From NCBI RefSeq assembly GCF_030696805.1, contig NZ_JAUYRO010000025.1, positions 1,844 through 65,843 on the forward strand: a stretch of DNA of 64,000 nucleotides, read 5' to 3'. Origin of the DNA: Methyloversatilis sp. (GTDB lineage Bacteria > Pseudomonadota > Gammaproteobacteria > Burkholderiales > Rhodocyclaceae). The stretch's first letter is position 1. The number at the start of each line of letters is the position of its first letter. Shown in pieces: positions 22,723-46,663 of the stretch. The translations under genes and the position numbers were made by a program. The notes under the pieces are model-generated. The model did no database searches. It was given only the letters and a program-made list of their open reading frames with translations, and was not told the DNA's origin.

Positions 22723-22862
22723 AGCGTGCATCGCGTTCGGTTGTGCGCGTGCCGGTGTCGTACGGGAACTGCCGGGCTGCGACAATGACAGACCAGGGCC
22801 GGCGCCCGGCCATCGAACCCCGGGTCGGCAAAGTCTGCGACGCCACCCCAAAAAGGAAAACC

Positions 22863-30839: not shown

Positions 30840-33800
30840 TCAGCCGTCCTGGGGGGCTTTGGCGAAGCGGCCGTAGTGCAGCAACAGCGTCGGCAGTACC
30901 AGCAGATTCAGTATCGTCGAGGTCGTCAGGCCGCCGACGATGATGGCGGCCATCGGTCCTTCGATCTCCCGACCGGGTTCGCCCGAGCCGAGTACCAGCG
31001 GCATCAGGCCGAGGCCGGTCACCAGCGCCGTCATCAGGATGGACGGCAGACGCTGCGAGGCGCCCAGGATGGCGGTGTCGAGGTTCCACGGATGCCCCTC
31101 GCGCTCCACCAGGTGCTGGAAGTGCGACACCAGCATGATCGAGTTGCGCAGCGTGATGCCGAACAGCGTGACGAAGCCGACCACCGAACCGAGTGACAGC
31201 CAGCCGCCGCCGGCCAGCGCAGCCAGCACGCCGCCGATCAGCGCAAACGGCAGGTTCACGAAGGTGATCACCAGGTTGCGCGAGCTCGAAAATGCCAGCA
31301 TCAACAGGATGGCAATGGCCGCCGCGGCCAGCGCCGAATGCGTGACCAGCTCACGTCGCGCCTGTGCCTGTGCTTCGGCAGCACCGGTCACCGTGTAGTA
31401 ACTGCCTGCGTTGAGTTTCACGTCGTCGCGCAAGGTACGCTCGACGGCCTCGCTGAACGCGCCCAGATCGTGGCCGCTGGCCAGATTTGCGGTGATGGTC
31501 TGCACCCGCTTGCCACCCGAGTGCAGGATTTTGTAGCGACCATTCTCGACGCTGATGTCGGCTACGTCGCGCAGTTCGACCAGCCGGCCGTCAGGCGTGC
31601 GCAGCGGCAGCCGCCCGATTTCATTCGGCGAGCGGCGGTGGTCCGGATCCAGCGTCACAACCAGCGGAGTCGCCAGCGTACCGCGATACACCTCGCTCAC
31701 CTTGCGCCCGGCAAAGGCGGTGCTGGTCGCCGACAGCACGTCTTCGGGCGTCAGTCGCCACACTGCGAGCTTGTCCAGGCGCGGCCGGACGATGATTTCC
31801 GGCGTGCCGGGCGGCGCCAGCACCTGCACATCGGTCGCGCCCTTCACCTTCGCCAGCGCTCGCGCAACGGCGCTGGCGTCGGCATCCAGCCGGTCGAGAT
31901 TGGTGCCGAACACCTGCACCACCAGCGTCGCCGGAAAACCCGATTCGGTCTCGCCGATGCGTTCGGTCAGGAAGGTGTTGACGGAGAACGCCAGGCCGGG
32001 GAATCCGACCGATTCAGCGGCTTCTTCGTCCGAGCGATCGTCGTCGCCGTCATCGCCGGTCACCGTGCGCCGGATGTCGGCGAGGATGCGTTCCTGTGTC
32101 GCACCGTCGAGCGGACCGATTTCGATCTCGACCTCGCTGTAGTGCGGGCCGAAGGGGTCGAACCCGTTCTGCGCCCGCCCGACCCACTGCGCCACCGACT
32201 TCACGCCGTCGATCTGCAGGATCTTTTCGGTCACCCGCTGGCCGACGCGCAGCACCTCGCCCGGCGCGGTGCCCGGAATGGTCGACAGATGCACGATGTA
32301 GTGACCTTCGCGCAGTGGAGGAATGAATTCGCCGCCGAACAGCGGCAGTACGCCCAGCCCGCCGGCCAGCGCCAGCATGACGCCGGCGATCAGCCCGTGC
32401 GGCCGGCGTTCGATGGCGCGCAGCGTCCGCTCATAGCGCGGGCGCAGCCAGCGCACCAGCGGCGGATCCTCATCAGGCAGTTCGCGGTTGCCGAGCATCA
32501 GGAAGCTCATCGCGGGTGTGACCGTCAGCGCCACCACCAGCGACGCGAGGATGGCCAGGATGTAGGCCAGACCGAGCGGCGCGAACAGCTTGCCGGCGAC
32601 GCCGGACAGGGTGAGCAGCGGCACGAACACCAGCGCCACGATGAAGGTGGCGTACACCACCGAGCTGCGCACCTCCATCGACGCATCGAGCACCACCTTC
32701 CAGGCGGCCACCGGAGAACCGAGGTGACGGTTTTCGCGCAGCCGTCGATAGATGTTTTCGCAGTCGATGATGGCGTCGTCCACCACCTCGCCGAGGGCGA
32801 TCGCCAGCCCGCCCAGCACCATGATGTTCAGGCTGGCGCCCGCTTCCAGCATGACCAGTACCGCCGCCAGCAGCGACAGCGGAATGGCGACGGCTGAAAT
32901 GAACGCGGTGCGCAGGTTGTACAGGAACACGAACAGCACGATCACCACCAGCGTGGCGCCGATCATCACGTCGGCCCGTACATTACCCAGCGCCGTCTGG
33001 ATGAAATTGGCGGGCCGGAACAGCGCCGGGTGCAGCGTGACCTGTTCGCGCTCGAACAGCGGTGCCAGCTCGGCCAGCGATTTTTCCAGTTCGAGCGTGA
33101 CGCCGAGCGTGTCGGCGCCGAGCTGTCCCTGCACCATCATGAATACGCCGGGCGTGCCGTTGATCTGCGCCGCGCTGATCGCCGGGCCTGGTGCTTCGCG
33201 CACACGGCCGACGTCGCCGAGCGCGAGCGAGCGCCCATCAGGAAGTGTGACGGTCAGCTGTTCCAGACTGCGCGCGGACGAAGGCGTGGCGTCGATCGCG
33301 ATCAGCAGGCGCTGGTTGTCGTTCTCGACGAAACCTGCGCCGGCGACCGAAGCGGCGCCGCGCGCCGCCAGTTCGACGTCGGCAAAGGTCACCCCCAGCG
33401 TACGCAGCCGTGCCGGGTCGAGCTGGATCTGCCACTGCTTCACTTCGCCACCGAACACATTCACGTCCGCCACACCCGGCACCGCCAGCAGATGCGGCCG
33501 CACCACCGAATCGACCAGGTAGCGCATGTCCATCTGCGAGCGCTGTGCCGACGTGATGCCGATGCCGAGCAGGGTGCTGGCCGACGAGGTCAGTGGCGTG
33601 ATGACCGGCGTTACACCGGCTGGCAACAGCGATCCCAGCGTGCCGAGCCGTTCCGACACCAGCTGACGATTGCGGAACAGGTCGGACTTTTCTTCGAAGA
33701 TGACCGTGATGACCGACAGGCCGGGAATCGACTGCGAGCGCAGTTCCTTGATGCCGCGCGTGCCGGATACTGCCGATTCGATCGGCGTCGTGACCCGCGT

Positions 33801-33986
33801 TTCCACCAGGTCGGCCGGCAGGCCTGGGGCTTCGGTCTGGATCACGACCTGCGCCGGTGCGAATTCGGGAAACACGTCGAGGCGGGCGTCGAACATGCGG
33901 CTGATTGCGTAGAGCACGAGCACCAGCGACAGTGCCAGCACGATGCCTGGCCGGCGCACGGAAAAGCGGACGATGGCTTCGATCAT
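30840..33986 (-). CDS. RND efflux permease, CusA/CzcA (HME)-like
   Basis: LDVFPEFAP.QV.IQTEAPG, GEVVDDAIID.EN, GFVTLFGI..RNSI and RL.SILMTAL..GLGL.PL motifs. 1048 aa. Confidence 0.95.
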   Translation of the reverse strand: MIEAIVRFSVRRPGIVLALSLVLVLYAISRMFDARLDVFPEFAPAQVVIQTEAPGLPADLVETRVTTPIESAVSGTRGIKELRSQSIPGLSVITVIFEEKSDLFRNRQLVSERLGTLGSLLPAGVTPVITPLTSSASTLLGIGITSAQRSQMDMRYLVDSVVRPHLLAVPGVADVNVFGGEVKQWQIQLDPARLRTLGVTFADVELAARGAASVAGAGFVENDNQRLLIAIDATPSSARSLEQLTVTLPDGRSLALGDVGRVREAPGPAISAAQINGTPGVFMMVQGQLGADTLGVTLELEKSLAELAPLFEREQVTLHPALFRPANFIQTALGNVRADVMIGATLVVIVLFVFLYNLRTAFISAVAIPLSLLAAVLVMLEAGASLNIMVLGGLAIALGEVVDDAIIDCENIYRRLRENRHLGSPVAAWKVVLDASMEVRSSVVYATFIVALVFVPLLTLSGVAGKLFAPLGLAYILAILASLVVALTVTPAMSFLMLGNRELPDEDPPLVRWLRPRYERTLRAIERRPHGLIAGVMLALAGGLGVLPLFGGEFIPPLREGHYIVHLSTIPGTAPGEVLRVGQRVTEKILQIDGVKSVAQWVGRAQNGFDPFGPHYSEVEIEIGPLDGATQERILADIRRTVTGDDGDDDRSDEEAAESVGFPGLAFSVNTFLTERIGETESGFPATLVVQVFGTNLDRLDADASAVARALAKVKGATDVQVLAPPGTPEIIVRPRLDKLAVWRLTPEDVLSATSTAFAGRKVSEVYRGTLATPLVVTLDPDHRRSPNEIGRLPLRTPDGRLVELRDVADISVENGRYKILHSGGKRVQTITANLASGHDLGAFSEAVERTLRDDVKLNAGSYYTVTGAAEAQAQARRELVTHSALAAAAIAILLMLAFSSSRNLVITFVNLPFALIGGVLAALAGGGWLSLGSVVGFVTLFGITLRNSIMLVSHFQHLVEREGHPWNLDTAILGASQRLPSILMTALVTGLGLMPLVLGSGEPGREIEGPMAAIIVGGLTTSTILNLLVLPTLLLHYGRFAKAPQDG

Positions 33987-34046
33987 CGGGAGCGGCCCAT
34001 GGGACAGGCTGCCTCCGTTAGGGGGGGCAGGGTGGCTTGGGGGCGG

Positions 34047-34176
34047 TTTTGGGCATCGCTGCGCTCACCCCAACCTGCGGGAAGGTGGTGACACGGAGCT
34101 GAGGGAAGCAGGCGTGCTGCGGACGTGCGGTGTCGCGGTGCTGTCGTAGGTTGGGGTGAGCCAGCGAACCCCAACA
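34047..34176. repeat. REP-like inverted doublet, family B, inside the efflux operon
   Basis: Reverse copy at about 34049-34078 and forward copy GTAGGTTGGGGTGAGCCAGCGAACCCCAACA at 34146-34176. Confidence 0.8.
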
Positions 34177-34208
34177 TGCGGCCGCGGCCCGGCAGCGAAA
34201 GCGCCCGA

Positions 34209-35255
34209 TCAGTCATCGTTTTCGTCCGCCAGCGTGTGCTTGAGCTCTTCCGACAACAGCAGCTGCGCGCCGCGCGTCACCACGCGGGCGTCATCCTCCA
34301 GCTTCGGTGCGAGCCAGCCATCAGGCCGCTGCGAGTCGGCGGGCAGCGCCTGGCGGGTGAATTCCTCCGGTTCGTCATCGTCGCGCACATACACCCAGGG
34401 CAGGCCGGCGTACCAGACGACGGCGCTGTTGGGCACCAGCGACAGCATGGTTTCGCCGGTCACGCCGCGTGCCGCGAGGCGGGTACCGGTCGGCAGTACG
34501 CGCTCGGACTTGTACAGCCAGGTCTCTCCGGCCGCCTGGGCGAGGCTGCGCGGTGCAGGGCCGATGCGGCGCGCCTCGATGGCGTCGTTGCCATCCGGCA
34601 GGCGCAGCAGCATCAGCGGCGGCGCCTCACCGGAACCGCGCAGCGCGACGGCGACCAGCGAATTGCGCCGGTCGGCCAGCCGCTCCAGTTCATCGGGCGC
34701 CTCGCCCGTCGCCGATCCGGCCAGCGGGCCCCAGCCGTGAACCAGCCGCGCATGCAGGCCGTCGGCACGGGCGCGCGCAGCGGCCAGCGCGGCACGATCC
34801 TGTTCGACCTGGCTGCGCGCCGTCTGCAGCGTGCGCTCCGATACATTGCGGTCATCGCTGAACAGCGCCTGAACGCGATCACGCTCGGTTTCGGCGCGGG
34901 CAAGCTGAGCCGCAAGCCGTGCGATGTCGGCGCGCGCTTCATGCAGCAGGCCACGCAGCGCGAACAGTGGCTCCAGGTCAAGCACGGCCGCCTGCGCCTC
35001 GTGTTCGGTGCCGGCCCGCACCGCGAGCGGTTGGCCAAGTTCGATGCCGCTCGCCGTCTGGGCGGCGGCAGTCAGGCGCACGCTGGTCAGGCCGTCGGGA
35101 TTCCGCTCGACCAGTGATGGCACTTCGATATCGTCGTCCGGTTGTTCGCCGTACAGCTTCCACTCGTCGCGGGCGTAATAGACCACTGCCCAAACCAGTG
35201 CGATCAGCAGCAGGCCCATCGCAAACAGCAGTTGCTGGGGAGTGATGCGGTTCAT
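34209..35255 (-). CDS. RND periplasmic adaptor (membrane fusion protein)
   Basis: N-terminal TM anchor, coiled-coil hairpin, VP.SAVVW..G..WVY and VVTRGAQLLLSEE motifs. ATGA overlap with tolC. Confidence 0.88.
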   Translation of the reverse strand: MNRITPQQLLFAMGLLLIALVWAVVYYARDEWKLYGEQPDDDIEVPSLVERNPDGLTSVRLTAAAQTASGIELGQPLAVRAGTEHEAQAAVLDLEPLFALRGLLHEARADIARLAAQLARAETERDRVQALFSDDRNVSERTLQTARSQVEQDRAALAAARARADGLHARLVHGWGPLAGSATGEAPDELERLADRRNSLVAVALRGSGEAPPLMLLRLPDGNDAIEARRIGPAPRSLAQAAGETWLYKSERVLPTGTRLAARGVTGETMLSLVPNSAVVWYAGLPWVYVRDDDEPEEFTRQALPADSQRPDGWLAPKLEDDARVVTRGAQLLLSEELKHTLADENDD

Positions 35256-36643
35256 GGTGTGGTCTCCGTGGGGCTCGTCATTGCAGACAGCGGGCGCTGC
35301 ACCGCATCTTCGAGTGCCAGGCGCGATGCGAGGGTTCGCTGGCGGGCATACAGCACCCGGATGTCGGCTTCGATCACGCGCACGCGGGCCAGCAGGCGAT
35401 CCAGCCGATCGGCATCGCCGCGTGCGTAGCGTTGTTCGGTGCGCGTGGCTTGCAGACGGGCTTCGTCGTGCTCGGCTTCGGCGCCGTCGATGTCCAGTTC
35501 GGCCGCCCTGACGCGGGAGCGCGCGTGGTCGAGCGCCACCAGCGCCTGCGACTGCAGCGCGAGGAAATCCTGCGCAGCCATGTCGCGCCGCGCGACCGCT
35601 TCGGCGATCGGTCCGGCCTGACGTTGCGCCGCAAACAGCGGCAATGCAGCACCCAGACTCCAGACGGTGGCGCCCTGGTCCCACAGCAGACCGGGCCTGA
35701 TGCGGATCTCCGGGTACTGCGCGCGCAGTTCAACCGTCAGCGCCGCTTCGGCTGCGTCGTGCAGTGCCAGCGCACGGCGCAGATCGATGCGGTCGAGCGT
35801 GGCGTTCGCCCGCAGCGCCCCCATCGCCGGCACCGCGGCCGGCGTGTCAAAGGCGGTGAAATCGATGCGCAGTGCGTCGAGTGCAGACAGCGGCAAGGCG
35901 AGCGCCTGCGCAAGATCGCCGCGCGCGCGGATCTGCCGCTGTTCGGCCAATACATAGCGCGATTCGGCCTGTGCCGCGGCGGTGCGGGTCTGCGTCAGTT
36001 CGAGCGCATCGGCAGCGCCCAGGTCGTAGCGCTTCTGCATCACCGCCTGGGCTTCCAGCGTGTTGACGACCAGACGATCGAGCAGCGCGAGCTCGGCATT
36101 GGCCGACCACAGTTCGATCAGTGCGCGCTGGGCGCTGCTGCGGACGACCCATGCAGCATCGGCCTCGTCGAGCAGTGCCGCGTCGGCCAGCAGGCGGGCG
36201 CGCTCGATGCGGGCTTCACGTACCGATTCGCCGGTCAGCGCGAGGTCCAGTGCGAGGCCGACACTCCACGCCGACTGCCCGGGGTCGCGTTCGTTGGTGC
36301 GTTCGGTCTCCGGTGCCAGAACGGTGCGCGGCGTGAGGCCAGCGGTCTGCAACTGGGCGCGGGCCAGGGAAGCACGAGCGCGCGCCTGCGCTGCGGCAGG
36401 GTGCTGCAGCAGCGCCGCCAGCACAAGCTGCTCGGGTGCCCAGCGTTCCGGCGGCCAGGTCGATACATTCATGCTGCGCTGCTCAAGAAATGCGCGCGTG
36501 GCTTCATCGGCCAGCGAACGGCCAAGGAAGGCCGTCTGCAGTGCCTGCGGATCGAGCGGTGCGGGCGGCACCTGTTGCACCGCACATGCGCTGAGGACGA
36601 TACAGGGAAGCAGCAAGTAGAACGGAGGGGTGAGGCACCGCAT
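35252..36643 (-). CDS. TolC-family outer membrane efflux lipoprotein
   Basis: Lipobox LSAC, two helical repeats (RYDLG..D.LEL and RY.RG..DRLD.L), first gene of the RND operon. Confidence 0.88.
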   Translation of the reverse strand: MRCLTPPFYLLLPCIVLSACAVQQVPPAPLDPQALQTAFLGRSLADEATRAFLEQRSMNVSTWPPERWAPEQLVLAALLQHPAAAQARARASLARAQLQTAGLTPRTVLAPETERTNERDPGQSAWSVGLALDLALTGESVREARIERARLLADAALLDEADAAWVVRSSAQRALIELWSANAELALLDRLVVNTLEAQAVMQKRYDLGAADALELTQTRTAAAQAESRYVLAEQRQIRARGDLAQALALPLSALDALRIDFTAFDTPAAVPAMGALRANATLDRIDLRRALALHDAAEAALTVELRAQYPEIRIRPGLLWDQGATVWSLGAALPLFAAQRQAGPIAEAVARRDMAAQDFLALQSQALVALDHARSRVRAAELDIDGAEAEHDEARLQATRTEQRYARGDADRLDRLLARVRVIEADIRVLYARQRTLASRLALEDAVQRPLSAMTSPTETTP

Positions 36644-36688: not shown

Positions 36689-37651
36689 ATGCACGCTGTT
36701 GTGCGCAAACGAAGCCCCGGCTGGCGACTCTCATGCATCCACATTTTGATGGGTATGGTGCTGACGATCGCAGCGGCTGGCGTACAGGCGCTGGAGGCGC
36801 TTGAGGTCCGGCAGGCGGCGCCCGGTGTCTTCCTGTTCCACGGCGATATCGCCGAGCAGGATGCGCGGAATCTGGGTGCGATATCCAACCTCGGCTTCAT
36901 CGTCGGCAGCCGCTGCGTGGCGGTTATCGATACCGGCGGCTCGCCAGCTGTTGGCGCTGCGCTGCGCGCCAGCATCCGCAGCAAGACCGACCTGCCCGTG
37001 TGCTACGTGATCAACACCCACGTACATCCGGACCACATTCTGGGCAATCAGGCGTTCATTGACGACAAGCCGGTGTTCGTCGGCCATGCCCGGCTGCCTG
37101 CCGCGCTGGCGGCGCGCAGCAGCCATTATCTGGCAGCAGCCGAACGTCTGATGGGGGAAGCCGGCAAAGGGCTCCAGCCGGTGCCGCCCTCGCGCACCGT
37201 GGCGGACGTGGACGAACTCGATCTGGGCGGGCGGACGCTGAAGCTGCGGGCCTGGCCAACTGCGCATACGGACAACGATCTCACCGTACTGGACGAGGCA
37301 ACCGGCACGCTGTTTGCCGGCGATCTGCTGTTCGTCGAACACCTGCCGGTGGTGGACGGCAAGATACTTGGCTGGATCAAGGTGGGTGCCGCCCTGGCGG
37401 CGATGGACGTGCAGCGCGTAGTGCCAGGTCATGGCGACGCCGGCAGTGCGTGGCGCGAAGCTTTTGCGAAGCAGGGGAACTACCTGCAGGGGCTGGTCGA
37501 TCAAACCCGTGCAGCGTTGAAAGCCGGAAAGACACTTTCGCAGGCGGTGGGCGAAGTCGCACCGGGTGAGGCAACAGGCTGGGCGCTGGTCGATCTGTTC
37601 CACCGGCGCAACGTGACGTCCGCGTTTGCCGAACTCGAATGGGAAGAATGA
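36689..37651 (+). CDS. Periplasmic MBL-fold zinc metallohydrolase (quinoprotein relay system, SoxH-like)
   Basis: Signal peptide, SN.GFIVG...VAVIDTGGS, INTHVHPDHILGN, AHTDNDL, FAGDL and VPGHG motifs. Confidence 0.88.
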   Translation: MHAVVRKRSPGWRLSCIHILMGMVLTIAAAGVQALEALEVRQAAPGVFLFHGDIAEQDARNLGAISNLGFIVGSRCVAVIDTGGSPAVGAALRASIRSKTDLPVCYVINTHVHPDHILGNQAFIDDKPVFVGHARLPAALAARSSHYLAAAERLMGEAGKGLQPVPPSRTVADVDELDLGGRTLKLRAWPTAHTDNDLTVLDEATGTLFAGDLLFVEHLPVVDGKILGWIKVGAALAAMDVQRVVPGHGDAGSAWREAFAKQGNYLQGLVDQTRAALKAGKTLSQAVGEVAPGEATGWALVDLFHRRNVTSAFAELEWEE

Positions 37652-37718
37652 TGGATGGCGCATGTCAGCATTACTGTCAGCAAGCGGTCTGCTGCAGAAT
37701 GACCACGAGGAGAAGACG

Positions 37719-38543
37719 ATGAAATTCAACAACGGATTGCCGGCGGCACTGGCGGCCTGCATGATCCTGCTGCTGCCGGGGGCGCAGGCGGCTGACGACG
37801 GCTCGGATACGCCGATCTGGGGCAAGGTGCGCACGCTGCTGGTCGGCGACCGCCCGGTGATCGAGGATGCGACCGGTTCCGTACTGGAGATCGAAGCGCC
37901 GGTGCGTGCCGAAGACGCGGCCGTGGTTCCGGTCTCCGTGCGCACTAAACAGCTGCCGGGTGGTGTCTACGTCAGCAAGGTGCATCTGGTGATCGACGAG
38001 AACCCGTCACCGATAGGTGGCACCTTCACCTTCACGCCGCTTGCCGGCCGGGCCGACATCGAAACCCGGGTGCGCATCGAGGCCTACAGCTGGGTACGCG
38101 CCATCGCTGAAACGAGCGACGGAAAGGTTTATGTCGCGCGTCGCTTCGTGAAGGCCTCGGGCGGCTGTTCGGCGCCTGCCGGCAAGGACATGGAGGAGGC
38201 GCTGGCGCGGCTGGGCAAGATGAAATTCAAGGTCGAAGAGGCCGCAGCAGGCCAGCCCAGCGTTGCGCAATTGATGATAAGCCACCCAAACAGCTCCGGG
38301 CTGGCAATGGACCAGATGACCCGGCTGTTCGTACCGCCGCATTTCGTGCGCCGCGTCGAGGTCACCTTCGGCGGAGAACCGGTCATGACCGCGGAGGTCG
38401 ATTTTTCGATCAGCGAAAATCCGAACTTCAGGTTCTACGTGCTGCCGGCGAAGGAGGGCGTACTGAAGGCGGTGGTGGTCGATTCCAAGGACCTGCGCTT
38501 CGAAACTTCAGTGGCGATCAAGCCGGGGTTGCGAGGGTCTTGA
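37719..38543 (+). CDS. Quinoprotein dehydrogenase-associated fused SoxY-SoxZ-like carrier
   Basis: Signal peptide. SoxY-like APVRAED.AVVP...IDENP.P and VKASGGCSAP. SoxZ-like ISHPN.SGL.MDQ and SISENP.FRF. RBS GAGGAG. Confidence 0.88.
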   Translation: MKFNNGLPAALAACMILLLPGAQAADDGSDTPIWGKVRTLLVGDRPVIEDATGSVLEIEAPVRAEDAAVVPVSVRTKQLPGGVYVSKVHLVIDENPSPIGGTFTFTPLAGRADIETRVRIEAYSWVRAIAETSDGKVYVARRFVKASGGCSAPAGKDMEEALARLGKMKFKVEEAAAGQPSVAQLMISHPNSSGLAMDQMTRLFVPPHFVRRVEVTFGGEPVMTAEVDFSISENPNFRFYVLPAKEGVLKAVVVDSKDLRFETSVAIKPGLRGS

Positions 38544-38544
38544 G

Positions 38545-38570
38545 CAGTGCGGCGCAAGCCGCACTGTTGT
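38545..38570. terminator. Hairpin terminator between convergent genes
   Basis: CAGTGCGGC-GCAA-GCCGCACTG: 9-bp stem, GNRA loop, short T run. Confidence 0.6.
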
Positions 38571-38585
38571 GTCGCGTGCTTTCAA

Positions 38586-38939
38586 TTACTTGATGAAGCA
38601 GCGCTTCTTTGATTCTGCAACGACGTCCAGGTACTTCTTGACCGCGCCTTTTGTTTCATCGGTGCCGCGGAACACGCCGCCGCGTTCGCCACTCATCGAC
38701 TGGGTGCGGCTGAAGCTCGACAGCTCGACGTACTCGTCATGCGTCAGCTTGGTCGCGATTTCGTCGATCAGGCATGAACACTTGTAGATGTACTCGTGGT
38801 TGGTGCCGTAAGCCTGAAGGCATTCGAGCGCAAATTCGACACGCGAACTGGTCGGGTATTCGTTGGCCGCCGTAGCGGGGCCACCCATCAGCAGCGCGCC
38901 GAGCGCAGCGATCGTCACGTGGAAGCGATGAAATTTCAA
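38586..38939 (-). CDS. Small exported four-Cys conserved hypothetical protein
   Basis: Signal peptide then EYPT..RVEF..EC, KCSC.ID.I and RC. TTG start 7 nt after GAGGAG (ATG alternative at 38954). Confidence 0.75.
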   Translation of the reverse strand: MKFHRFHVTIAALGALLMGGPATAANEYPTSSRVEFALECLQAYGTNHEYIYKCSCLIDEIATKLTHDEYVELSSFSRTQSMSGERGGVFRGTDETKGAVKKYLDVVAESKKRCFIK

Positions 38940-39041
38940 ACCGGATCTCCTCATTTGTTATTGATGAACCGCAGGGACTCGCTGGCTGGCATCGACAAAA
39001 AGGCTAGCACATCAACGCAGACCGCCGTTTTGCCGCCCGAG

Positions 39042-40004
39042 TTGCACAGGATTGTTTCCCGATGGCTTTGCGCCGTCATCGTGATTTTCGCGGGAAGTCT
39101 GTTCAGCGCAGCGCCCGCGCTCGCGCAGCAACTGCCTGAGCTGCGCCTGACGCCGCTGGCCGAAGGCGTCTACGTGCTGCGTCCGACCTCGTCCGAAGTG
39201 AGTCCGGAAAACGCCGGTTTCGTGACCCACATCGGCGTGCTGGTCGATGTACGCGGTCTTGTCGTTGTGGGCACCGGCACCAGCCAGCGCTTTGCGCAGC
39301 ACCTGCTCGCCTTCGTCGAACGCGAACTGGGCAAACCTGTGATCGCGGCGGTCAATCTTTATGGTGGTGGCGACCATGTGCTGGGCAACCGCGCGTTTGT
39401 GTCACGGGGTGTGCCGGTTACAGCGCATATTGAAACAGACCGCTTCATCCGGGCCAGTTGCCATACGTGTGTCGAGCGCCTGACGGCGGCACTGGGCGAA
39501 AATATGATGTCAGGTACCGAACCCACCCCCGCAAGCGTGACCTTCGAACATTCAGGCCGGCTGACCGGCGTCTCCCGCAGGCTGACATTGCTGCACTACG
39601 GACACACCTTCCAGCCCGGCGCAACCGCGCTGCTGGACGAGGCAAGCGGAACGCTGTTCGCGGGCGAGCTGGCGGCGACGCACTATCTGCCCGATCTGTA
39701 CAACGCGAGTGAAACCGGCTGGGTCGCCGCCCTTGATGCGCTGATCGCACTGGGCGCGCGACAGGTGGTGCCCGCGCATGGCGCGCCGGGCGGACGTGAA
39801 GTTCTCGAAGCGCCGCGCCGTTATTTGCAGCAACTGGTCGAGCGCGTGGATGCGCTGTTCGCAGGCGGCGCAACGCTCGAAGAAGCGCTGGATCAGGTCG
39901 AACTGGCGGAATTCCGCGATTGGTATGGCTACGCCCTGTGGCACCGCCGCAACGTGCATTTCGCCTATCTGCACCGGGAGGCCCGTGCCTTCGGCCCGCA
40001 GTGA
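39042..40004 (+). CDS. Periplasmic MBL-fold protein with degenerate metal motif and a CxxC
   Basis: Signal peptide, N.GFV..IG.L....GLVVVGTG, NLYGGGDHVLGN, LFAGEL, VPAHG and HRRNV..AY motifs. Start uncertain (38964 ATG or 39042 TTG). Confidence 0.8.
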   Translation: MHRIVSRWLCAVIVIFAGSLFSAAPALAQQLPELRLTPLAEGVYVLRPTSSEVSPENAGFVTHIGVLVDVRGLVVVGTGTSQRFAQHLLAFVERELGKPVIAAVNLYGGGDHVLGNRAFVSRGVPVTAHIETDRFIRASCHTCVERLTAALGENMMSGTEPTPASVTFEHSGRLTGVSRRLTLLHYGHTFQPGATALLDEASGTLFAGELAATHYLPDLYNASETGWVAALDALIALGARQVVPAHGAPGGREVLEAPRRYLQQLVERVDALFAGGATLEEALDQVELAEFRDWYGYALWHRRNVHFAYLHREARAFGPQ

Positions 40005-40078
40005 AGTCAGGCGTGGATCAGGACACGGCCCGCAGCCGTGCCCCACACAACAAGATTGATCGATGAGGATGAGCCTAC

Positions 40079-41767
40079 ATGTCGGAACCGTTTTCCATAC
40101 CGCTTGAGCAGATGCGTCGCATGGTCAAGCCCACGCCCAAGGGGCGCCCGCTTGATCCGGTTGCCGTCGAAGAAGTGCAGGCGCTGCTCGGTCGCATGCC
40201 GCGCCGTCCGGATCTGCTGATCGAATGCCTGCACCTGTTGCAGGACACCTACCGCGCGGTGCACGCGCGCCATCTCGCCGCACTGGCGGCCGAACTGAAG
40301 ATGTCGCAGGCCGAGGTATACGAGGTGGCGACGTTCTATCACCACTTCGACGTGCTGCGCGAAGGCGAGGGCGCGCCGGCCGAACTGACCGTGCGCGTGT
40401 GCGACACGCTGTCCTGCAAGATGGCCGGAGCGGACGATCTGCTGAAGAAGCTGCCGGGCATCCTGGGCACCAGGGTGCGCGTCATTCCGGCACCCTGTGT
40501 CGGCCGCTGCGAACAGGCACCGGTCGTCGTAGTCGGTCAGAACGCGCTGGGCGGCGCCACCGAAGCGGACGTGAAGGCCGCCGTGAAGGCGAATGAATCG
40601 ACGCATCCGCTGCCCCGTTACGTCGGCTACAAGGCTTACCTCAAAGCCGGTGGCTACCAGTTGTTCCGCGATCTGGTCGAAGGTCGTCGCGATGTCGAGT
40701 CGGTCATTCAGGCGATGGAACATTCCGGCCTGCGCGGTCTGGGCGGCGCCGGATTCCCGGCCGGCCGCAAATGGCGCATCGTGCGTGCCGAGGCGGCGCC
40801 GCGTCTGATGGCAATCAATATCGACGAGGGCGAACCCGGCACCTTCAAGGACCGCTGGTACCTCGAACGCGATCCGCACCGCTTCCTCGAAGGCATGCTG
40901 ATCGCCGCCTACTGTGTCGGCATCGGCGAGGTGTATGTCTATCTGCGCGACGAGTACGCGCATGTGCGCGACATCCTGCAGAAGGAACTGAAGAAGCTGT
41001 TGGCCGCTCCGCCCTGTGCGCTGCCGCCAATCCACCTGCGCCGCGGCGCGGGCGCCTACATCTGCGGTGAAGAGTCGGCGATGATCGAATCGATCGAAGG
41101 CAAGCGCGGCATGCCGCGCCTGCGCCCGCCGTATGTCGCCCAGGTCGGCCTGTTCGGTCATCCGACGCTGGAACACAATATGGAAACCGTGTTCTGGATC
41201 CGCGACATCGTGGAGAAGGGCGCGGACTGGTTCGCCGGTCAGGGGCGCAACGGTCGCAAGGGGCTGCGTTCGTTCTCGGTGTCGGGTCGCGTGAAGAAGC
41301 CGGGCGTGCATCTGGCACCGGCCGGCATTTCGGTGCGCGAACTGATCGATGAATACTGTGGCGGCATGCAAGCCGGCCATGCCTTCTACGGCTATCTGCC
41401 CGGGGGCGCGTCCGGCGGCATCCTGCCAGCCAGTCTGGGCGACATCCCGCTCGACTTCGACACCCTGCAGCCCTACGGCTGCTTCATCGGCTCGGCAGCG
41501 GTGATCATCCTGTCCGACCATGACCGCGCGACCGATGCGGCGCGCAACATGATGCATTTCTTCGAACACGAGTCGTGCGGGCAGTGCACGCCCTGCCGCG
41601 TCGGCACGGCCAAGATGAACACGCTGATGGAAGCCCCGGTGTGGGACACCGATCTGGTCGAAGAGCTGTCACAGACCATGGTGGACGCGTCGATCTGCGG
41701 CCTCGGGCAGGCGGCACCGAATCCGGTGCGCTGCGTCATCAAGTATTTCCCTGACGAAATCAAGTGA
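40079..41767 (+). CDS. NAD-dependent formate dehydrogenase beta subunit (fused NuoE+NuoF-like, Fdh1B type)
   Basis: VCDTLSC...PCVGRC [2Fe-2S], SGLRGLGGAGFP, DEGEPGTFKDR, GAGAYICGEE and ESCGQCTPCR...SICGLG motifs. Confidence 0.93.
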   Translation: MSEPFSIPLEQMRRMVKPTPKGRPLDPVAVEEVQALLGRMPRRPDLLIECLHLLQDTYRAVHARHLAALAAELKMSQAEVYEVATFYHHFDVLREGEGAPAELTVRVCDTLSCKMAGADDLLKKLPGILGTRVRVIPAPCVGRCEQAPVVVVGQNALGGATEADVKAAVKANESTHPLPRYVGYKAYLKAGGYQLFRDLVEGRRDVESVIQAMEHSGLRGLGGAGFPAGRKWRIVRAEAAPRLMAINIDEGEPGTFKDRWYLERDPHRFLEGMLIAAYCVGIGEVYVYLRDEYAHVRDILQKELKKLLAAPPCALPPIHLRRGAGAYICGEESAMIESIEGKRGMPRLRPPYVAQVGLFGHPTLEHNMETVFWIRDIVEKGADWFAGQGRNGRKGLRSFSVSGRVKKPGVHLAPAGISVRELIDEYCGGMQAGHAFYGYLPGGASGGILPASLGDIPLDFDTLQPYGCFIGSAAVIILSDHDRATDAARNMMHFFEHESCGQCTPCRVGTAKMNTLMEAPVWDTDLVEELSQTMVDASICGLGQAAPNPVRCVIKYFPDEIK

Positions 41768-41783
41768 AGGGACGGCAATCCAA

Positions 41784-44588
41784 ATGAATGCACCCATTGA
41801 TGCTTCGGTGATCGCGCAATCGATCGAATTCACGCTCGACGGCCAGTCGATGACGGCCCGTGTCGGCGAAACCATCCTGCAGGCGGCGGCCCGTCAGGGC
41901 GTGGACATTCCGCACCTCTGCTACAAGGACGGCTACCGTCCGGACGGCAACTGCCGCGCCTGCGTGGTCGAGATAGACGGCGAACGCGTGCTTGCGCCAA
42001 GCTGCTGCCGCGCACCGACGCCCGGCATGAACGTGAAGGCCGAGTCGGAGCGCGCCGTGAAGGCGCAGAAGATGGTGGTTGAGCTGCTGCTGTCGGACAT
42101 GCCGGACCAGACCTACACACCCGATTCCGAACTGGCGCACTGGGCAGAGAAGCTCGGCGTGACCGGCTCGCGCTTCGAAGGCCGCGATCAGCCGGCATGC
42201 GACCAGTCGCATCCGGCGATGAGCGTGAACCTCGACGCCTGCATCCAGTGCAACCGGTGCGTGCGCGCCTGTCGCGAAGAGCAGGGCAATGACGTGATCG
42301 GCTATGCCTTCCGCGGTTCGGCGTCGAAGATCGTGTTCGATCAGGACGACCCGATGGGCGCGTCGACCTGCGTGGCGTGCGGCGAATGCGTGCAGGCCTG
42401 CCCGACCGGCGCGCTGATGCCGGCCGGTGGCGTCGGCATGGTGAAGATGGACAAGACCGTCGATTCCGTCTGTCCGTACTGCGGCGTTGGCTGCCAGCTG
42501 ACTTATCACGTCAAGGACGACCGCGTACTGATGGTGAGCGGCCGCGACGGTCCGGCCAACGAAGAGCGCCTGTGCGTCAAGGGCCGCTTCGGTTTCGACT
42601 ACGCGCGTCACCCGCAGCGTCTCACGAAGCCGCTGATCCGCCGTGCCGATGCACCGAAGCACAAGAATTTCGTCGTCGATCCGGGCAATCCGCTGTCGGC
42701 CTTCCGCGAAGCCAGCTGGGAAGAAGCGATCGAGTACGCAACCAGCCGGCTGCGCACCATCCGCGACACCAAGGGGCCGAACGCTCTGGCCGGTTTCGGT
42801 TCAGCCAAGGGCTCGAACGAAGAGGCCTACCTGTTCCAGAAGCTGATCCGCACCGGCTTTGGTACCAACAACGTCGATCACTGCACACGCCTGTGCCATG
42901 CCTCGTCGGTTGCGGCGCTGCTGGAAGCGGTCGGTTCGGGCGCAGTGTCGAACCCGGTACGCGATGTGCTGCACTCGGACGTGATCTTCCTGATCGGCGC
43001 CAATCCGCTGGTCAATCACCCGGTGGGCGCGACCTGGATCAAGAACGCGGTCAGGCAGGGTGCGCGCCTCATCGTGTGCGATCCGCGCCGCAACGACCTG
43101 CAGCGCTACGCCACGCACTTCCTGCAGTTCAAGCCGGACACCGACGTGGCCATGCTGAACGCGATGATGCACGTCATCATCGAAGAAGGTCTGGTCGACG
43201 AGGCGTTCGTGCGCGACCGCACTTCGGGTTTCGATGCGCTGAAGAAGAACGTCGCCGATTTCAGTCCGGAGCGCATGGCCAAGATCTGCGGCATTCCGGC
43301 CGAAACGCTGCGCGAGGTGGCACGCATGTTCGCGACCTCGAAGGCGTCGATGATCCTGTGGGGCATGGGCGTGTCGCAGCATGTTCATGGCACCGACAAT
43401 GCACGCTGCCTGATTTCGATGGTCATGATGACCGGCCAGATCGGTCGACGCGGCACCGGCCTGCATCCGCTGCGCGGCCAGAACAATGTGCAGGGTGCCT
43501 CCGACGCCGGCCTGATACCGATGGTGTTCCCGGACTACCAGGCGGTCGGCAACAAGACCATCCGCGACAAGTTCGAAGAACTGTGGGGCAGCCGTCTCGA
43601 TGCCAACCCCGGTCTGACCGTGGTTGAAATCATGGACGCCATCCATGCCGGCAAGCTCAATGGCTGCTACATCATGGGCGAAAATCCGGCCATGTCCGAT
43701 CCGGATGTCGAGCACGCCCGCGATGCGCTGGCCAAGCTCGATTGCCTGGTCGTGCAGGACATCTTCCTGACCGAAACCGCCTACTTCGCGGATGTCGTGC
43801 TGCCAGCGTCGGCCTTCCCGGAGAAGACCGGCACCTTCACCAATACCGACCGTCAGGTGCAACTGGGTCGTCAGGCGATCAATCCGCCGGGCGATGCGCG
43901 ACAGGACCTGTGGATCATCCAGCAGATGGCCAACGGCATGGGGCTGGACTGGCATTACGACGGCGCGAAGGACGTGTTCAACGAAATGCGCAAGGCGATG
44001 CATTCGATCGCCGGCATCACGTGGGAGCGGCTGGAAGCCGAGCACTCGGTTACCTATCCGTGCGAAAACGAGGGCGACCCGGGCGACGAGGTGGTGTTCA
44101 TCGAGCGCTTCCCGACCCAGTCCGGTCGCGCCAAGCTGGTGCCGGCCAAACTGATCAGCGCCAACGAGAAGCCGGACGCCGACTTCCCGATGGTGCTGAT
44201 CACCGGCCGCCAGCTTGAACACTGGCATACCGGTTCAATGACGCGCCGGGCGTCGGTACTCGACAACATCGAGCCGATCGCCACGGTCACGATCAACCCG
44301 GCCGACATGGCGAAGCTGAAGCTGCGGCCGGGCGAGGTCGTCACGGTCGAATCACGCCGCGGCAAGATCGCGCTGTACGCGCGTGTCGATGGCAACGTGC
44401 CGGTCGGCGCCGTGTTCATCCCGTTTGCGTATTACGAAGCAGCCGCCAATATGCTGACCAATCCGGCGCTGGACCCGTTCGGCAAGATTCCGGAGTTCAA
44501 GTATTGCGCGGTGCGGTTGAAAAAGGGCGGAATGCCGACCCGACTGTCGTCCTACGGCGGCGGTCAGGCGAAGATGGTAACTGCTTGA
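41784..44588 (+). CDS. Formate dehydrogenase alpha subunit (Fdh1A/FdhF type, Cys ligand)
   Basis: IPHLC...DGNCRAC, CIQCNRCVRAC, CVACGECVQACP, CPYCGVGC, NNVDHCTRLCH, LRGQNNVQG and TGRQLEHWH motifs. Confidence 0.95.
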   Translation: MNAPIDASVIAQSIEFTLDGQSMTARVGETILQAAARQGVDIPHLCYKDGYRPDGNCRACVVEIDGERVLAPSCCRAPTPGMNVKAESERAVKAQKMVVELLLSDMPDQTYTPDSELAHWAEKLGVTGSRFEGRDQPACDQSHPAMSVNLDACIQCNRCVRACREEQGNDVIGYAFRGSASKIVFDQDDPMGASTCVACGECVQACPTGALMPAGGVGMVKMDKTVDSVCPYCGVGCQLTYHVKDDRVLMVSGRDGPANEERLCVKGRFGFDYARHPQRLTKPLIRRADAPKHKNFVVDPGNPLSAFREASWEEAIEYATSRLRTIRDTKGPNALAGFGSAKGSNEEAYLFQKLIRTGFGTNNVDHCTRLCHASSVAALLEAVGSGAVSNPVRDVLHSDVIFLIGANPLVNHPVGATWIKNAVRQGARLIVCDPRRNDLQRYATHFLQFKPDTDVAMLNAMMHVIIEEGLVDEAFVRDRTSGFDALKKNVADFSPERMAKICGIPAETLREVARMFATSKASMILWGMGVSQHVHGTDNARCLISMVMMTGQIGRRGTGLHPLRGQNNVQGASDAGLIPMVFPDYQAVGNKTIRDKFEELWGSRLDANPGLTVVEIMDAIHAGKLNGCYIMGENPAMSDPDVEHARDALAKLDCLVVQDIFLTETAYFADVVLPASAFPEKTGTFTNTDRQVQLGRQAINPPGDARQDLWIIQQMANGMGLDWHYDGAKDVFNEMRKAMHSIAGITWERLEAEHSVTYPCENEGDPGDEVVFIERFPTQSGRAKLVPAKLISANEKPDADFPMVLITGRQLEHWHTGSMTRRASVLDNIEPIATVTINPADMAKLKLRPGEVVTVESRRGKIALYARVDGNVPVGAVFIPFAYYEAAANMLTNPALDPFGKIPEFKYCAVRLKKGGMPTRLSSYGGGQAKMVTA

Positions 44589-44887: not shown

Positions 44888-45043
44888 CGCATTTGACCGA
44901 TGGCTGCGGTGGGCGGCGGAGGTGCGCATTTCCTTTGCCCGGTCGCTTTTCCGCGCAGGTCGTGCGTCGCTTCCCCTTTGCTTCAGACCATCGGATTTCC
45001 GCAATTCGCCGGCGGGTGCTGCCGGCGCTGCAAGGAGGTCTGC

Positions 45044-45841
45044 ATGCGTACCATTCTTCTCACATCCCTTATCGGACTGGCGTTTGCCGGGTCTGCCCAG
45101 GCCGGCCCATTTGCGCCGGCCGCCGGTCAGGCCGGCTCGACCGCCATCAGCAAGGACAGCCCGGCTTTCGTCCAGTGGGCGACCGGCTATCTCGACTATC
45201 TGCCCGGTCCCAACGTCGACGCCACGTGGCAGACGCCGCAAAAGGGTCTGGGCGTGGCCCAGGGCGGCGCGACCGACATCGTCGTGCTTGGCGACGGCGG
45301 CAGCATCACACTCACCTTCGACGGCTACATCACGAACGGCGCAGGCGCCGATTTTGCAGTATTCGAAAACGGCTTCATGGACACCTTCCTTGAACTGGCG
45401 TTCGTCGAGGTGTCGTCCAACGGTACCGATTTCTTCCGCTTTCCGAACTTCTCGTTCACGGCCAGCCCGGTCGGCGGCTTCGGCCTGATTGACCCGACCA
45501 ATATCGACGGTCTGGCCGGCAAGTACCGCGCCGGTTTCGGCACGCCGTTCGATCTCGAGGTGCTGAGCGGCGTCGCCGGACTGGACGTGAACAAGGTGCA
45601 GTACGTGCGCCTGATCGACGTGGTCGGCAATGGTTCGACCTTCGACAGCTTCCCGGCCGAATACGGCGGGCCGCACCCCATCTACGACCCGTACCCGACC
45701 ACCGGCAGCAGCGGCTTCGACCTCGACGCAGTCGGCGTCATCCACTACGCGGCACTGCCGGCCGTGCCCGAGCCGTCGCAGTGGGCGATGTACTGCGCCG
45801 CACTCGGCCTGCTCGGTCTGGTCGCCCGCCGCCGCGGCTGA
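45044..45841 (+). CDS. PEP-CTERM surface protein, BtuH-like putative B12-binding domain
   Basis: RBS AAGGAGG and signal peptide. LGDGGSITLTFD..I.NG.G.DFAVFEN.F...FLELAFVEVS.NG..F.RF core. VPEPSQWAMYCAALGLLGLVARRRG tail. Confidence 0.88.
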   Translation: MRTILLTSLIGLAFAGSAQAGPFAPAAGQAGSTAISKDSPAFVQWATGYLDYLPGPNVDATWQTPQKGLGVAQGGATDIVVLGDGGSITLTFDGYITNGAGADFAVFENGFMDTFLELAFVEVSSNGTDFFRFPNFSFTASPVGGFGLIDPTNIDGLAGKYRAGFGTPFDLEVLSGVAGLDVNKVQYVRLIDVVGNGSTFDSFPAEYGGPHPIYDPYPTTGSSGFDLDAVGVIHYAALPAVPEPSQWAMYCAALGLLGLVARRRG

Positions 45842-45874: not shown

Positions 45875-46663
45875 ATGAAAAAAACACTCATCACGCTCGC
45901 GCTGGGCGCACTGGCCGCCAGCCATGCCGCTTATGCCGCAACCACCGTAGCCACTTTCGACGACCTGCCGCTGGCGCCCGAAAGCCACTTCTTCCCGCAA
46001 GTGACGACCACCTTCACCAGCGGAGCGGCCACGTTCAATCACACTTTCACAAACTTCGGCGGCGGCTGCTGCCATGTTGACTGGGTGTATTCCAACCGCA
46101 CCGACACGACGACCGGCAACTACACCAATCAGCACAGCGCGATCACCGGCGGCGGTGCCGACGGATCGGGTCATTACGCGATCGCCAACTTCGGCGCGCC
46201 GACTGTCAGCTTTGCGTCGGCCGTCAGCGTGCAGGGTGCGTACTTCACCAACACGACGTTCACCGGCCTTACCCTGCTCACCGGCGACTTCTTCTCGAAA
46301 AAGTTCGGCGGCGCCAGCGGCAATGACCCCGACTATTTGAAGCTGACCATCCTCGGCAAGGACGCCGGCGGTGCGACGACCGGCAGCGTCGACTTCATGC
46401 TGGCCGACTACCGGTTCGACGACAACACGCAGGACTACGTGGTGACCGACTGGCGCTGGGTCGATCTGACGGCACTGGGCAGCGTCAGCAGCCTGCAGTT
46501 CGCGCTGGCGTCGAGCGACAGCGGTGAATTCGGCATCAACACGCCGGCCTATTTCGCGCTCGACAATCTGACTGTCACCGCCGTGCCGGAACCCGAACAG
46601 GCCGCGTTGCTGCTGGCCGGTCTTGCGCTGGTCGGCGCAATCGCGCGTCGCCGTCGCGGCTGA
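45875..46663 (+). CDS. PEP-CTERM surface protein with DUF4465 (BtuJ-like) domain
   Basis: Signal peptide. FTSG.A.F, YSN.TD, NQ.SA..GGG..GS..YA, TNTT, KKFGG, DY.KLTI.G, F.LADYR, W.WVDLT.LG, SSD.G..G.NTPAYF.LDN motifs. VPEPEQ...ARRRRG tail. Confidence 0.9.
   Translation: MKKTLITLALGALAASHAAYAATTVATFDDLPLAPESHFFPQVTTTFTSGAATFNHTFTNFGGGCCHVDWVYSNRTDTTTGNYTNQHSAITGGGADGSGHYAIANFGAPTVSFASAVSVQGAYFTNTTFTGLTLLTGDFFSKKFGGASGNDPDYLKLTILGKDAGGATTGSVDFMLADYRFDDNTQDYVVTDWRWVDLTALGSVSSLQFALASSDSGEFGINTPAYFALDNLTVTAVPEPEQAALLLAGLALVGAIARRRRG

Follow-up and report, generated by a model that had tools for sequence, protein, structure and literature searches.

A fused SoxYZ-like carrier module beside formate dehydrogenase genes in Methyloversatilis, and candidate chemistries for its arm cysteine

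The gene cluster considered here lies at positions 36689-44588 of a 64 kb stretch of Methyloversatilis DNA (below, the window; G+C about 66%). It encodes a fused SoxY-SoxZ carrier, two proteins of the metallo-beta-lactamase (MBL) fold, denoted MBL-A and MBL-B, a small exported protein with four cysteines (the 4-Cys protein), and both subunits of a formate dehydrogenase (FDH). Judged by its family matches, the locus is the Methyloversatilis copy of the periplasmic 'quinoprotein relay' module. In this genome the module is detached from a pyrroloquinoline quinone (PQQ) dehydrogenase and flanked by an efflux operon of the resistance-nodulation-division (RND) type and by fdh, and its degenerate MBL gene is apparently transcribed with fdh. 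The module already has curated family models, and it is on record as clustered with fdhAB in bacteria of other groups (PMC11237559). Added here are the 4-Cys protein as a core member, the lack of the canonical metal motif in 'metallohydrolase 1' at the loci examined, and the operonic position of SoxC and cytochrome c genes in some FDH-linked lineages. Of three chemistries weighed for the carrier cysteine, a sulfur adduct is tentatively placed first, while still short of probable, and part of the weight is assigned to none of the three. The features of the cluster are as follows.

36689..37651, plus strand: MBL-A, SoxH-like periplasmic hydrolase (quinoprotein relay system zinc metallohydrolase 2), TIGR04559
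37719..38543, plus strand: fused SoxY-SoxZ carrier with a signal peptide, ATG at 37719, TIGR04557 and AlphaFold2/Foldseek
38166..38168, plus strand: codon TGT of the arm cysteine (Cys151) in GGCSAPAGKD, invariant, aligned with the SoxY cysteine
38586..38954, minus strand: small exported 4-Cys protein, 122 aa, signal peptide, homologues in nearly all related loci
39042..40004, plus strand: MBL-B, second periplasmic MBL-fold protein, best start TTG, TIGR04558 below the cut-off
40079..41767, plus strand: FDH beta, cytoplasmic fusion of NuoE-like and NuoF-like parts (NAD/FMN/Fe-S), NCBIfam NuoE/NuoF matches
41784..44588, plus strand: FDH alpha, NuoG-like Fe-S N-terminus and Mo/W-bisPGD domain, TIGR01591
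44610..44633, no strand: bidirectional terminator-like hairpin closing the fdh transcription unit

The listing of open reading frames (ORFs) and the family scans agree with the initial annotation as to the presence of all the genes it had named. The exported 4-Cys protein is there as well, and its gene has to be placed on the minus strand at 38586-38954, convergent with the carrier gene and divergent from that of MBL-B. What that annotation lacked was the divergent RND operon (30840-36643), a conserved neighbour. It had also stated that the window contains neither soxABX nor a PQQ dehydrogenase. The latter part holds: tblastn of the window with representatives of PQQ dehydrogenase, MoxJ, cytochrome c, Gfa, FlhA, FghA and SoxC gave no match, and none of these was seen in Pfam scans of the other large ORFs of the window. 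As for the former, neither a cytochrome c nor a SoxB-sized metallophosphoesterase was seen among the scanned ORFs, and no SoxA, SoxB or SoxX turned up, these three having had no queries of their own.

The carrier and its partner proteins

The carrier matches TIGR04557 over the entire model (1-226 of 226) with 274.7 bits (cut-off 140, E 4.6e-82), and TIGR04488 with 70 bits (cut-off 125). Residues are numbered from 37716, which gives a length of 275; the SoxY hidden Markov model covers residues 52-151 and the SoxZ model residues 175-267, both on one polypeptide. It is 93-96% identical to proteins of Methyloversatilis species. The cysteine codon is at the position given earlier, TGT 38166-38168 within FVKASGGCSAPAGKD. 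Cys151 is invariant across 25 carrier homologues (55-93% identity) and aligns with the terminal, substrate-carrying GGC cysteine of SoxY (4uwq_B, 2ox5_Y). In the AlphaFold2 model based on this alignment (pLDDT 80, pTM 0.78), residues 151-156, the cysteine loop between two beta-sandwich domains, are the only segment with pLDDT below 50. The best Foldseek domain matches of the model are the SoxY and SoxZ chains of 2ox5 and 2oxg, with TM scores of 0.83-0.86 (target). Thus the carrier is a covalently fused SoxYZ, its 'swinging arm' being fixed at both ends.

The search for carriers found at least 6589 clusters. Among the related loci examined, the arm motif V[KR]A[SA]GGCSAP[AP]GKD is the same whether the carrier is linked to a PQQ dehydrogenase, to FDH or to SoxC, or is an orphan; therefore one chemistry is expected family-wide. 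A second, orphan SoxYZ-like carrier occurs in Methyloversatilis genomes (L049, L051, L053, L061; about 10001-10800 in each). It is 51-56% identical, has the same GGCSAP arm and is without an MBL or 4-Cys partner, and its neighbours, a Crp-family regulator and SpoT/RelA, are housekeeping genes. This paralogue was dropped as a functional clue because of the housekeeping neighbours and the missing MBL.

MBL-A scores 396.2 bits against TIGR04559 (cut-off 280, E 8e-119), has an N-terminal signal peptide by inspection, and retains the full set of di-metal ligands (HVHPDH, AHTD, GD, GHG), conserved in all orthologues. Among solved structures its nearest relatives, at E about 1e-13, are 8d2z, an unnamed protein of the MBL superfamily, and 6uxu, a chlorothalonil hydrolytic dehalogenase. 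Matches to glyoxalase II, B1 lactamases and an MBL-fold sulfatase reach only E 1e-4 to 1e-2. The match to the glyoxalase II model, 28.9 bits over 56 residues, is no closer than those to other MBL classes. As the structural relatives spread over classes, the sequence gives no functional class for MBL-A.

The second MBL protein has the fold assigned to it in the initial annotation, but the position of HxHxDH reads YGGGDH, and two histidine ligands are lost. Motif 1 of this protein is degenerate at every locus examined (THTRQEF, TQPLQEF, TQASPDQ and others), while the FDH-linked subgroup keeps the [D/E]-H pair of site 2 and later histidines. With the ligands of site 2 kept and motif 1 degenerate, a mono-metal site is possible in MBL-B, a canonical di-zinc site is not. 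Its score against TIGR04558 is 148.1 bits, below the cut-off of 300, and MBL-B is best described, as far as these matches go, as a related, divergent paralogue of the 'metallohydrolase 1' of that model. The counterpart in Azoarcus is named by PGAP merely 'MBL fold metallo-hydrolase'. The TTG start at 39042 precedes the signal peptide HRIVSRWLCAVIVIFAGSLFSAAPALA.

The fourth core member of the module is the 4-Cys protein, from a family without a model: family scans gave no Pfam or NCBIfam match, and a profile search found at least 1729 clusters, all labelled hypothetical. Its residues C45, C59, C61 and C119 and a GERG motif are invariant. The AlphaFold2 model (pLDDT 72) is a small four-helix protein with no significant fold match in the PDB structure search, and neither a thioredoxin-like fold nor a CXXC motif is found in sequence and model.

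Genomic contexts and the link to formate dehydrogenase

The comparison set comprised 80 genome loci around carrier homologues and further loci obtained by exact-protein look-up. Neighbours were scored by tblastn and by clustering of called ORFs, and frequencies are given for the 42 full-flank loci, those with at least 8 kb on both sides. The conserved core is formed by the 4-Cys protein, MBL-A, the carrier and MBL-B. A PQQ dehydrogenase of the methanol/ethanol family (TIGR03075), XoxF-type, is present in 28 of the 42 loci, in agreement with the earlier statement that the set is known beside quinoprotein dehydrogenases. A MoxJ-like binding protein accompanies the core in 27 of these loci, a beta-propeller protein in 18, a small cytochrome c in 17, and the glutathione-dependent formaldehyde genes flhA, gfa and fghA in 7-10. 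On the plasmid of Azoarcus KH32C the module shares an operon with genes for MoxJ, cytochrome c and PQQ dehydrogenase, and genes of the tetrahydromethanopterin (H4MPT) pathway lie at its flanks; there PGAP gives MBL-A and the carrier the same relay-system names.

The nearest kind of known system is this quinoprotein relay (TIGR04557/04558/04559), represented by PP_2677/PP_2678 in P. putida's ped cluster and META1p1703-1705 in Methylobacterium extorquens. The Methyloversatilis locus shares with it the order MBL-A, carrier, MBL-B, the signal peptides, the GGCSAP arm, and scores above the cut-offs for the carrier and MBL-A. Unlike it, the window holds no PQQ dehydrogenase, cytochrome c or MoxJ-like gene by the searches described above, the neighbours are the RND operon and fdh, MBL-B is under the TIGR04558 cut-off, and the fourth member is the 4-Cys protein, not a rhodanese.

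The FDH alpha subunit matches TIGR01591 with 786.6 bits (cut-off 666) and is of the cysteine type, without an in-frame TGA. In the beta subunit, NCBIfam matches to NuoE and NuoF cover residues 40-169 and 183-561, respectively; the NuoG, NuoF and NuoE domain matches are each under the cut-offs for full-length Nuo subunits. The N-termini of both subunits are without Tat or Sec signals, and given also the NAD/FMN modules of the NuoE/F type in the beta subunit, the enzyme is cytoplasmic. On this point the initial annotation, which proposed a periplasmic route, is corrected. The enzyme resembles Fdh1AB of M. extorquens AM1 and FdsA-FdsB of M. universalis FAM5 in its NuoG-like alpha subunit, NuoE-NuoF beta subunit and organization as a two-gene unit without fdhD. 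Against these enzymes it shows nothing unusual, and tungsten or molybdenum cannot be read from sequence. The FAM5 pair, which it matches by architecture, is annotated 'tungsten-containing NAD-dependent FDH' and is expressed constitutively and equally on methanol and methylamine (PMC5023235); of the genes of this cluster, that paper lists the FDH pair only. XoxF1-3 and Mdh2 are encoded elsewhere in Methyloversatilis (PMC5023235).

Adjacency of FDH to the module is rarer than the PQQ dehydrogenase context. It is seen in at least five betaproteobacterial lineages and in four gene arrangements, with orthologous FDH genes (66-75% identity to those of the window in L002, L090 and L091). The first arrangement is that of the window: RND operon, MBL-A, carrier, 4-Cys gene on the opposite strand, MBL-B, fdhB, fdhA. 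It is found in the Methyloversatilis clade (L001, L006-L010, L012) and in L014; L011 has the genes of the RND side, and its contig stops before fdh. The second, in L002-L005 and the Sterolibacteriaceae locus L088, has in addition a SoxC-type Mo enzyme and a cytochrome c before MBL-A. In the third (L090), PCD is followed by MBL-A, the carrier, the opposite-strand 4-Cys gene, MBL-B and, after a gap of 7 bp, fdhB and fdhA, with genes for a MoxJ-like protein, cytochrome c and PQQ dehydrogenase on the opposite strand beside PCD. In the fourth (L091), fdhA, fdhB and a cytochrome c gene lie on the other side, divergent from MBL-A, and MoxR/VWA genes and a PQQ dehydrogenase gene are downstream. The L091 cytochrome (8097-8723, minus strand) is a 208-aa c-type protein with a signal peptide, encoded by the first gene of the fdhB-fdhA unit; this is a periplasmic protein apparently co-transcribed with a cytoplasmic FDH, and it has no relationship to the SoxD-like cytochrome of L002.

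A fused soxYZ ('SoxYZ-S4') and soxH clustered with fdhAB and xoxF have been described in Thiodiazotropha, a Kuphus symbiont and methanotrophic Bathymodiolus symbionts (PMC11237559, 2024). Given this report and the recurrent arrangements described above, the adjacency is unlikely to be accidental. The deep branches of the neighbour-joining tree of carriers are too poorly resolved to count the origins of FDH adjacency. The symbiont islands resemble our locus in having the fused soxYZ and soxH clustered with fdhAB; they differ in holding xoxF and in belonging to Gammaproteobacteria.

The spacer between MBL-B and fdhB is 75 bp long, contains no promoter or terminator consensus, and in an alignment among strains is conserved only in the ribosome-binding region. 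A riboswitch before fdhB was considered and rejected, as there was no Rfam match. In four metatranscriptomes of one study, containing a strain 90-95% identical to the window, contigs cross the MBL-B/fdhB junction (39909-40116 in run X1, 39873-40614 in run X5). In contig depth, the 4-Cys gene, MBL-B and fdh exceed MBL-A and the carrier several-fold, MBL-B being about equal to fdh, and at the 3' end of the carrier gene the depth is zero. These contigs are assembled and strandless, their depth is a poor measure of expression, and DNA carry-over is not fully excludable; uniform DNA contamination, however, would not produce so uneven a pattern. Co-transcription of MBL-B, fdhB and fdhA is thus probable.

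The same spacer carries at 40009-40028 a 10-base unit, CAGGACACGG, whose copy number differs among strains: after 40018, RNA and DNA contigs contain it once or twice more, and in L007 a further partial copy is present. An inverted repeat, CACGGC..GCCGTG, with no T-run, adjoins these repeats.

An explanation independent of the cargo of the cysteine is that the fdh adjacency is inherited gene order in one betaproteobacterial group, with no joint function. Among the 80 closest loci it is indeed limited to the subgroup in which an opposite-strand 4-Cys gene stands between the carrier and MBL-B, a PQQ dehydrogenase and FDH occur together in none of the 42 full-flank loci, fdhB is preceded by spacers of 227-255 bp in L002 and L014, and FDH and the module sit in different compartments. 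However, L090 combines a PQQ dehydrogenase, the module and fdh, with only 7 bp between MBL-B and fdhB; in L091 fdh is on the other side and in the opposite orientation; fdh keeps its place beside the module although the flanking genes change from one of the four arrangements to the next; Gammaproteobacteria are reported to show this clustering too (PMC11237559); and RNA contigs bridge the MBL-B/fdhB junction. We consider mere inheritance of the order somewhat unlikely.

Chemistry of the arm cysteine

A flexible arm with a single cysteine and an intact metallohydrolase suggest, by analogy with SoxYZ and SoxB, covalent carriage followed by hydrolytic release. As the first of the three chemistries we tentatively propose a SoxB-independent mini-Sox, in which Cys151 on its flexible loop would carry a sulfur species, sulfane and then S-sulfonate, as in Sox. 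MBL-A would cleave the covalent adduct from Cys151, regenerating the thiol, and MBL-B and the 4-Cys protein may be docking or redox partners. Co-regulated with C1 genes (XoxF/Mdh2, FDH), the module would rid the periplasm of C1-oxidising cells of reactive sulfur (sulfite, thiosulfate and persulfide derived from sulfide).

In favour of sulfur, the three named parts, homologues of SoxY, SoxZ and SoxH, all derive from Sox components. Further, four lineages have carriers with the same arm in one operon with genes for a SoxC-type Mo enzyme and cytochrome c, which points to sulfur chemistry and favours the sulfur adduct over a C1 thioester. The Mo enzyme scores 587 bits against TIGR04555 (cut-off 420). 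In L002-L005 and L088, which represent two FDH-linked lineages, its gene and that of the cytochrome stand ahead of MBL-A and the carrier and are translationally coupled to them, stop and start codons overlapping, and in Methylibium (L047, L071, L084) the carrier is followed directly by the SoxC-type enzyme and cytochrome c. The Methylibium loci have no nearby MBL genes, and their other neighbours, EttA and RhlE, are housekeeping genes. A parallel is the soxCD-soxYZ-soxH cluster of Campylobacterota, where release of sulfate from SoxY is proposed to need no SoxB, a SoxH-like hydrolase taking its place (PMC10045233); the soxCDYZH set is mirrored by L002 and L088, which have SoxC and cytochrome c in the operon. 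In Pseudomonas, a rhodanese-domain protein accompanies the carrier/hydrolase pair (PMC12997753), and in Hyphomicrobium denitrificans thiosulfate inhibits growth on methanol, not on formate (PMC11237559); both observations fit a protective role. The published hypotheses are disulfide maturation and protection of PQQ (enzyme) from sulfur nucleophiles (PMC12997753, a 2026 review).

Several observations weigh against the sulfur adduct. It has been observed on no carrier of this family so far, and the Methyloversatilis locus itself is without SoxC, SoxXA, a rhodanese and a sulfide:quinone oxidoreductase (SQR), SoxA and SoxX having had no queries of their own. The genes around 28 of the 42 related loci are those of alcohol/C1 oxidation, not sulfur genes. 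The authors of one study, who incline to a carbon role, argue that fused carriers of this kind are present in organisms without thiosulfate oxidation (PMC11237559). The tie of MBL-B to fdh (the 7 bp gap in L090, read-through RNA) is left unexplained. Finally, the SoxC-like enzyme could oxidise free sulfite and never touch the carrier.

The comparison with canonical Sox (Paracoccus pantotrophus) has likewise two sides. Shared are the SoxY and SoxZ folds, the cysteine at the homologous position and the SoxH-like hydrolase. In contrast to Sox, one polypeptide holds both SoxY and SoxZ, which makes the arm (GGCSAP) an internal loop ahead of the SoxZ domain, versus a free C-terminal GGCGG; no SoxXA, SoxB or SoxCD was seen in the window, SoxC being covered by tblastn and SoxA, SoxB and SoxX by general ORF scans only; and Methyloversatilis, unlike canonical Sox hosts, is a methylotroph not known as a sulfur oxidiser.

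The second chemistry develops that of the initial annotation. In it, Cys151 would react with periplasmic formaldehyde to a hemithioacetal, a PQQ dehydrogenase would oxidise this to a thioester, MBL-A would release formate, and FDH would oxidise it: a protein-thiol analogue of the Gfa-FlhA-FghA glutathione pathway, possibly serving other aldehydes produced by PQQ dehydrogenases as well. MBL-fold thioesterases exist, glyoxalase II being one, and glutathione-dependent formaldehyde oxidation provides a precedent. The logic is shared with that pathway (Gfa, FlhA/AdhC, FghA) and with glyoxalase II; these, on the other hand, are cytoplasmic and use a small-molecule thiol, and FghA is an alpha/beta hydrolase. 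Since gfa/flhA/fghA are often beside the module in relatives, it is not simply their substitute.

The underlying link to C1 metabolism is supported: the module is linked to C1 oxidation and to this FDH by the PQQ dehydrogenase in 28 of 42 loci, gfa/flhA/fghA in 7-10, the FDH adjacency and the RNA contigs. What does not fit the initial annotation is the cytoplasmic FDH and the lack of an oxidant at the locus. For a C1 thioester speak the operon that the module forms, in most relatives, with genes for a MoxJ-like protein, cytochrome c and an XoxF-type PQQ dehydrogenase; the adjoining formaldehyde-oxidation genes (gfa/flhA/fghA as above, H4MPT genes in Azoarcus and L090); the orthologous fdh on either side of the module in at least five lineages and four arrangements, and in gammaproteobacterial symbionts too (PMC11237559); and the RNA contigs joining MBL-B to fdhB.

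On the other hand, a C1 adduct or thioesterase activity has been seen nowhere so far. FDH is cytoplasmic, and there is no formate channel among the scanned ORFs of the window. To oxidise the hemithioacetal, a PQQ dehydrogenase would have to act in trans, as neither it nor a cytochrome c is in the window. MBL-A matches glyoxalase II weakly (28.9 bits over 56 residues), and the arm is identical in the SoxC-coupled carriers. The carrier contig depth, several-fold under that of fdh, is ill-suited to a main-flux carrier, depth being a poor measure. In P. putida, the mutants have minimal alcohol phenotypes (PMC12997753). All in all, we hold the formaldehyde route to be unlikely, and judge in the same way its general form, in which Cys151 would be a periplasmic, protein-bound stand-in for glutathione that takes up aldehydes from lanthanide-type PQQ dehydrogenases, with MBL-A releasing the acid and FDH burning the formate.

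As the initial annotation had it, the carrier/hydrolase set is known bioinformatically only: the NCBIfam models are of the 'hypothetical equivalog' kind, and a review calls the function unknown (PMC12997753). According to the same source, PP_2677 and PP_2678 of the ped cluster are uncharacterised, and their RB-TnSeq phenotypes are minimal (PMC12997753).

The third chemistry is a thiol-disulfide relay for maturation or repair. By means of the carrier cysteine and the 4-Cys protein, the strained vicinal Cys-Cys disulfide of the PQQ dehydrogenase, or other cysteines of the periplasm, would be maintained in the proper redox state; the MBL proteins would be accessory, and the FDH adjacency would reflect shared regulation only. 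The module does co-occur with PQQ dehydrogenases having adjacent cysteines (the representative of the cluster reads QMCCDTVNRG), the 4-Cys protein is conserved as part of the core, and MoxR/VWA maturation genes adjoin the module in L002, L015, L088 and L091. This view is put forward in PMC12997753, which also notes a thioredoxin-like gene in the M. extorquens operon. However, such a relay gives no role to the intact di-metal hydrolase kept at every locus and leaves the SoxC coupling unexplained; the 4-Cys protein has no thioredoxin-like fold or CXXC; and many organisms with such dehydrogenases lack the module (PMC12997753). We regard it as quite improbable.

Neighbouring genes and significance

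The operon divergent from MBL-A, with 45 bp between the start codons, occupies 30840-36643 on the minus strand and consists of three genes.

30840..33986, minus strand: RND efflux pump, 1048 aa, best NCBIfam family CusA/CzcA, under the cut-off
34209..35255, minus strand: RND periplasmic adaptor, 348 aa, weak TIGR01730 match, position conserved
35252..36643, minus strand: RND outer-membrane factor lipoprotein, 463 aa, lipobox LSAC, PF02321 OEP on the L001 orthologue

Between the outer-membrane factor gene and the adaptor gene, stop and start overlap by 4 bp. Against the CusA/CzcA model the pump scores 611 bits, under the cut-off of 701, and its fourth transmembrane segment, ALGEVVDDAIIDCEN, has an AcrB-like DD pair. 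The pump was therefore rejected as a heavy-metal exporter, the pair standing in place of the metal-exporter motif; judged by sequence, it may belong to an unclassified RND subgroup travelling with the relay module. Orthologues of the pump (57-100% identity) flank the module in L001-L016, L027 and L059. As a neighbour of the module the operon, conserved in the FDH-linked lineages, recurs at more loci than FDH, and at L016 and L027 its place is between the PQQ dehydrogenase and the module.

In L016, L027 and L030, a flavoprotein resembling type II NADH dehydrogenase is encoded between the RND operon and MBL-A (e.g. 7453-9000, minus strand, in L016); these loci are without the 4-Cys and MBL-B genes and have GreB after the carrier. 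This Pyr_redox_2 gene was considered as a candidate SQR and rejected, since type II NADH dehydrogenases are the best matches among solved proteins (E 7e-40) and SQR is marginal. Contigs of related strains have about 35 unrelated bases in place of the spacer between the adaptor and pump genes (33987-34208, 222 bp), and a contig joint in runs X1 and X3 skips 220 bases there, which suggests a small insertion in this genome at 33987-34208.

Just past the fdh terminator there is a cobalamin riboswitch (RF00174, 44684-44901, plus strand, 111.7 bits), followed by genes for PEP-CTERM proteins (44900-45841, 45875-46663) and a TonB-dependent receptor (46715-48796). Together these probably form a B12-regulated uptake unit with unusual PEP-CTERM members; as the riboswitch marks a separate unit, the receptor was rejected as a part of the module. 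A cobW-family gene is found at 51451-52614 (minus strand). A rhodanese-domain gene (23388-23972, minus strand) and a cytochrome b561-family gene (22743-23387, plus strand) abut each other about 13 kb upstream of the module. At the other end, a molybdopterin oxidoreductase with a C-terminal BFD-like [2Fe-2S] domain (61667-64000, minus strand), which looks like an assimilatory nitrate reductase, runs off the window.

The carrier/MBL module, which has no assigned function, is widespread: many Proteobacteria, among them Pseudomonas putida and model methylotrophs, have it in their islands for methanol and alcohol oxidation. The authors who described SoxYZ-S4 suspect a carbon-linked role or protection of methanol dehydrogenase (PMC11237559). 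The Methyloversatilis locus is useful in this respect, as it has the module apart from the dehydrogenase, with a probable transcriptional tie to FDH, in a culturable methylotroph genus; therefore the sulfur and C1 chemistries predict different masses on one cysteine and different mutant phenotypes. If the sulfur reading is true, it would explain how periplasmic quinoprotein metabolism copes with reactive sulfur. If, instead, the C1 thioester is true, it would constitute a new periplasmic, glutathione-independent route from aldehyde to acid, relevant to lanthanide-dependent methylotrophy, and the 'quinoprotein relay system' would gain a function.

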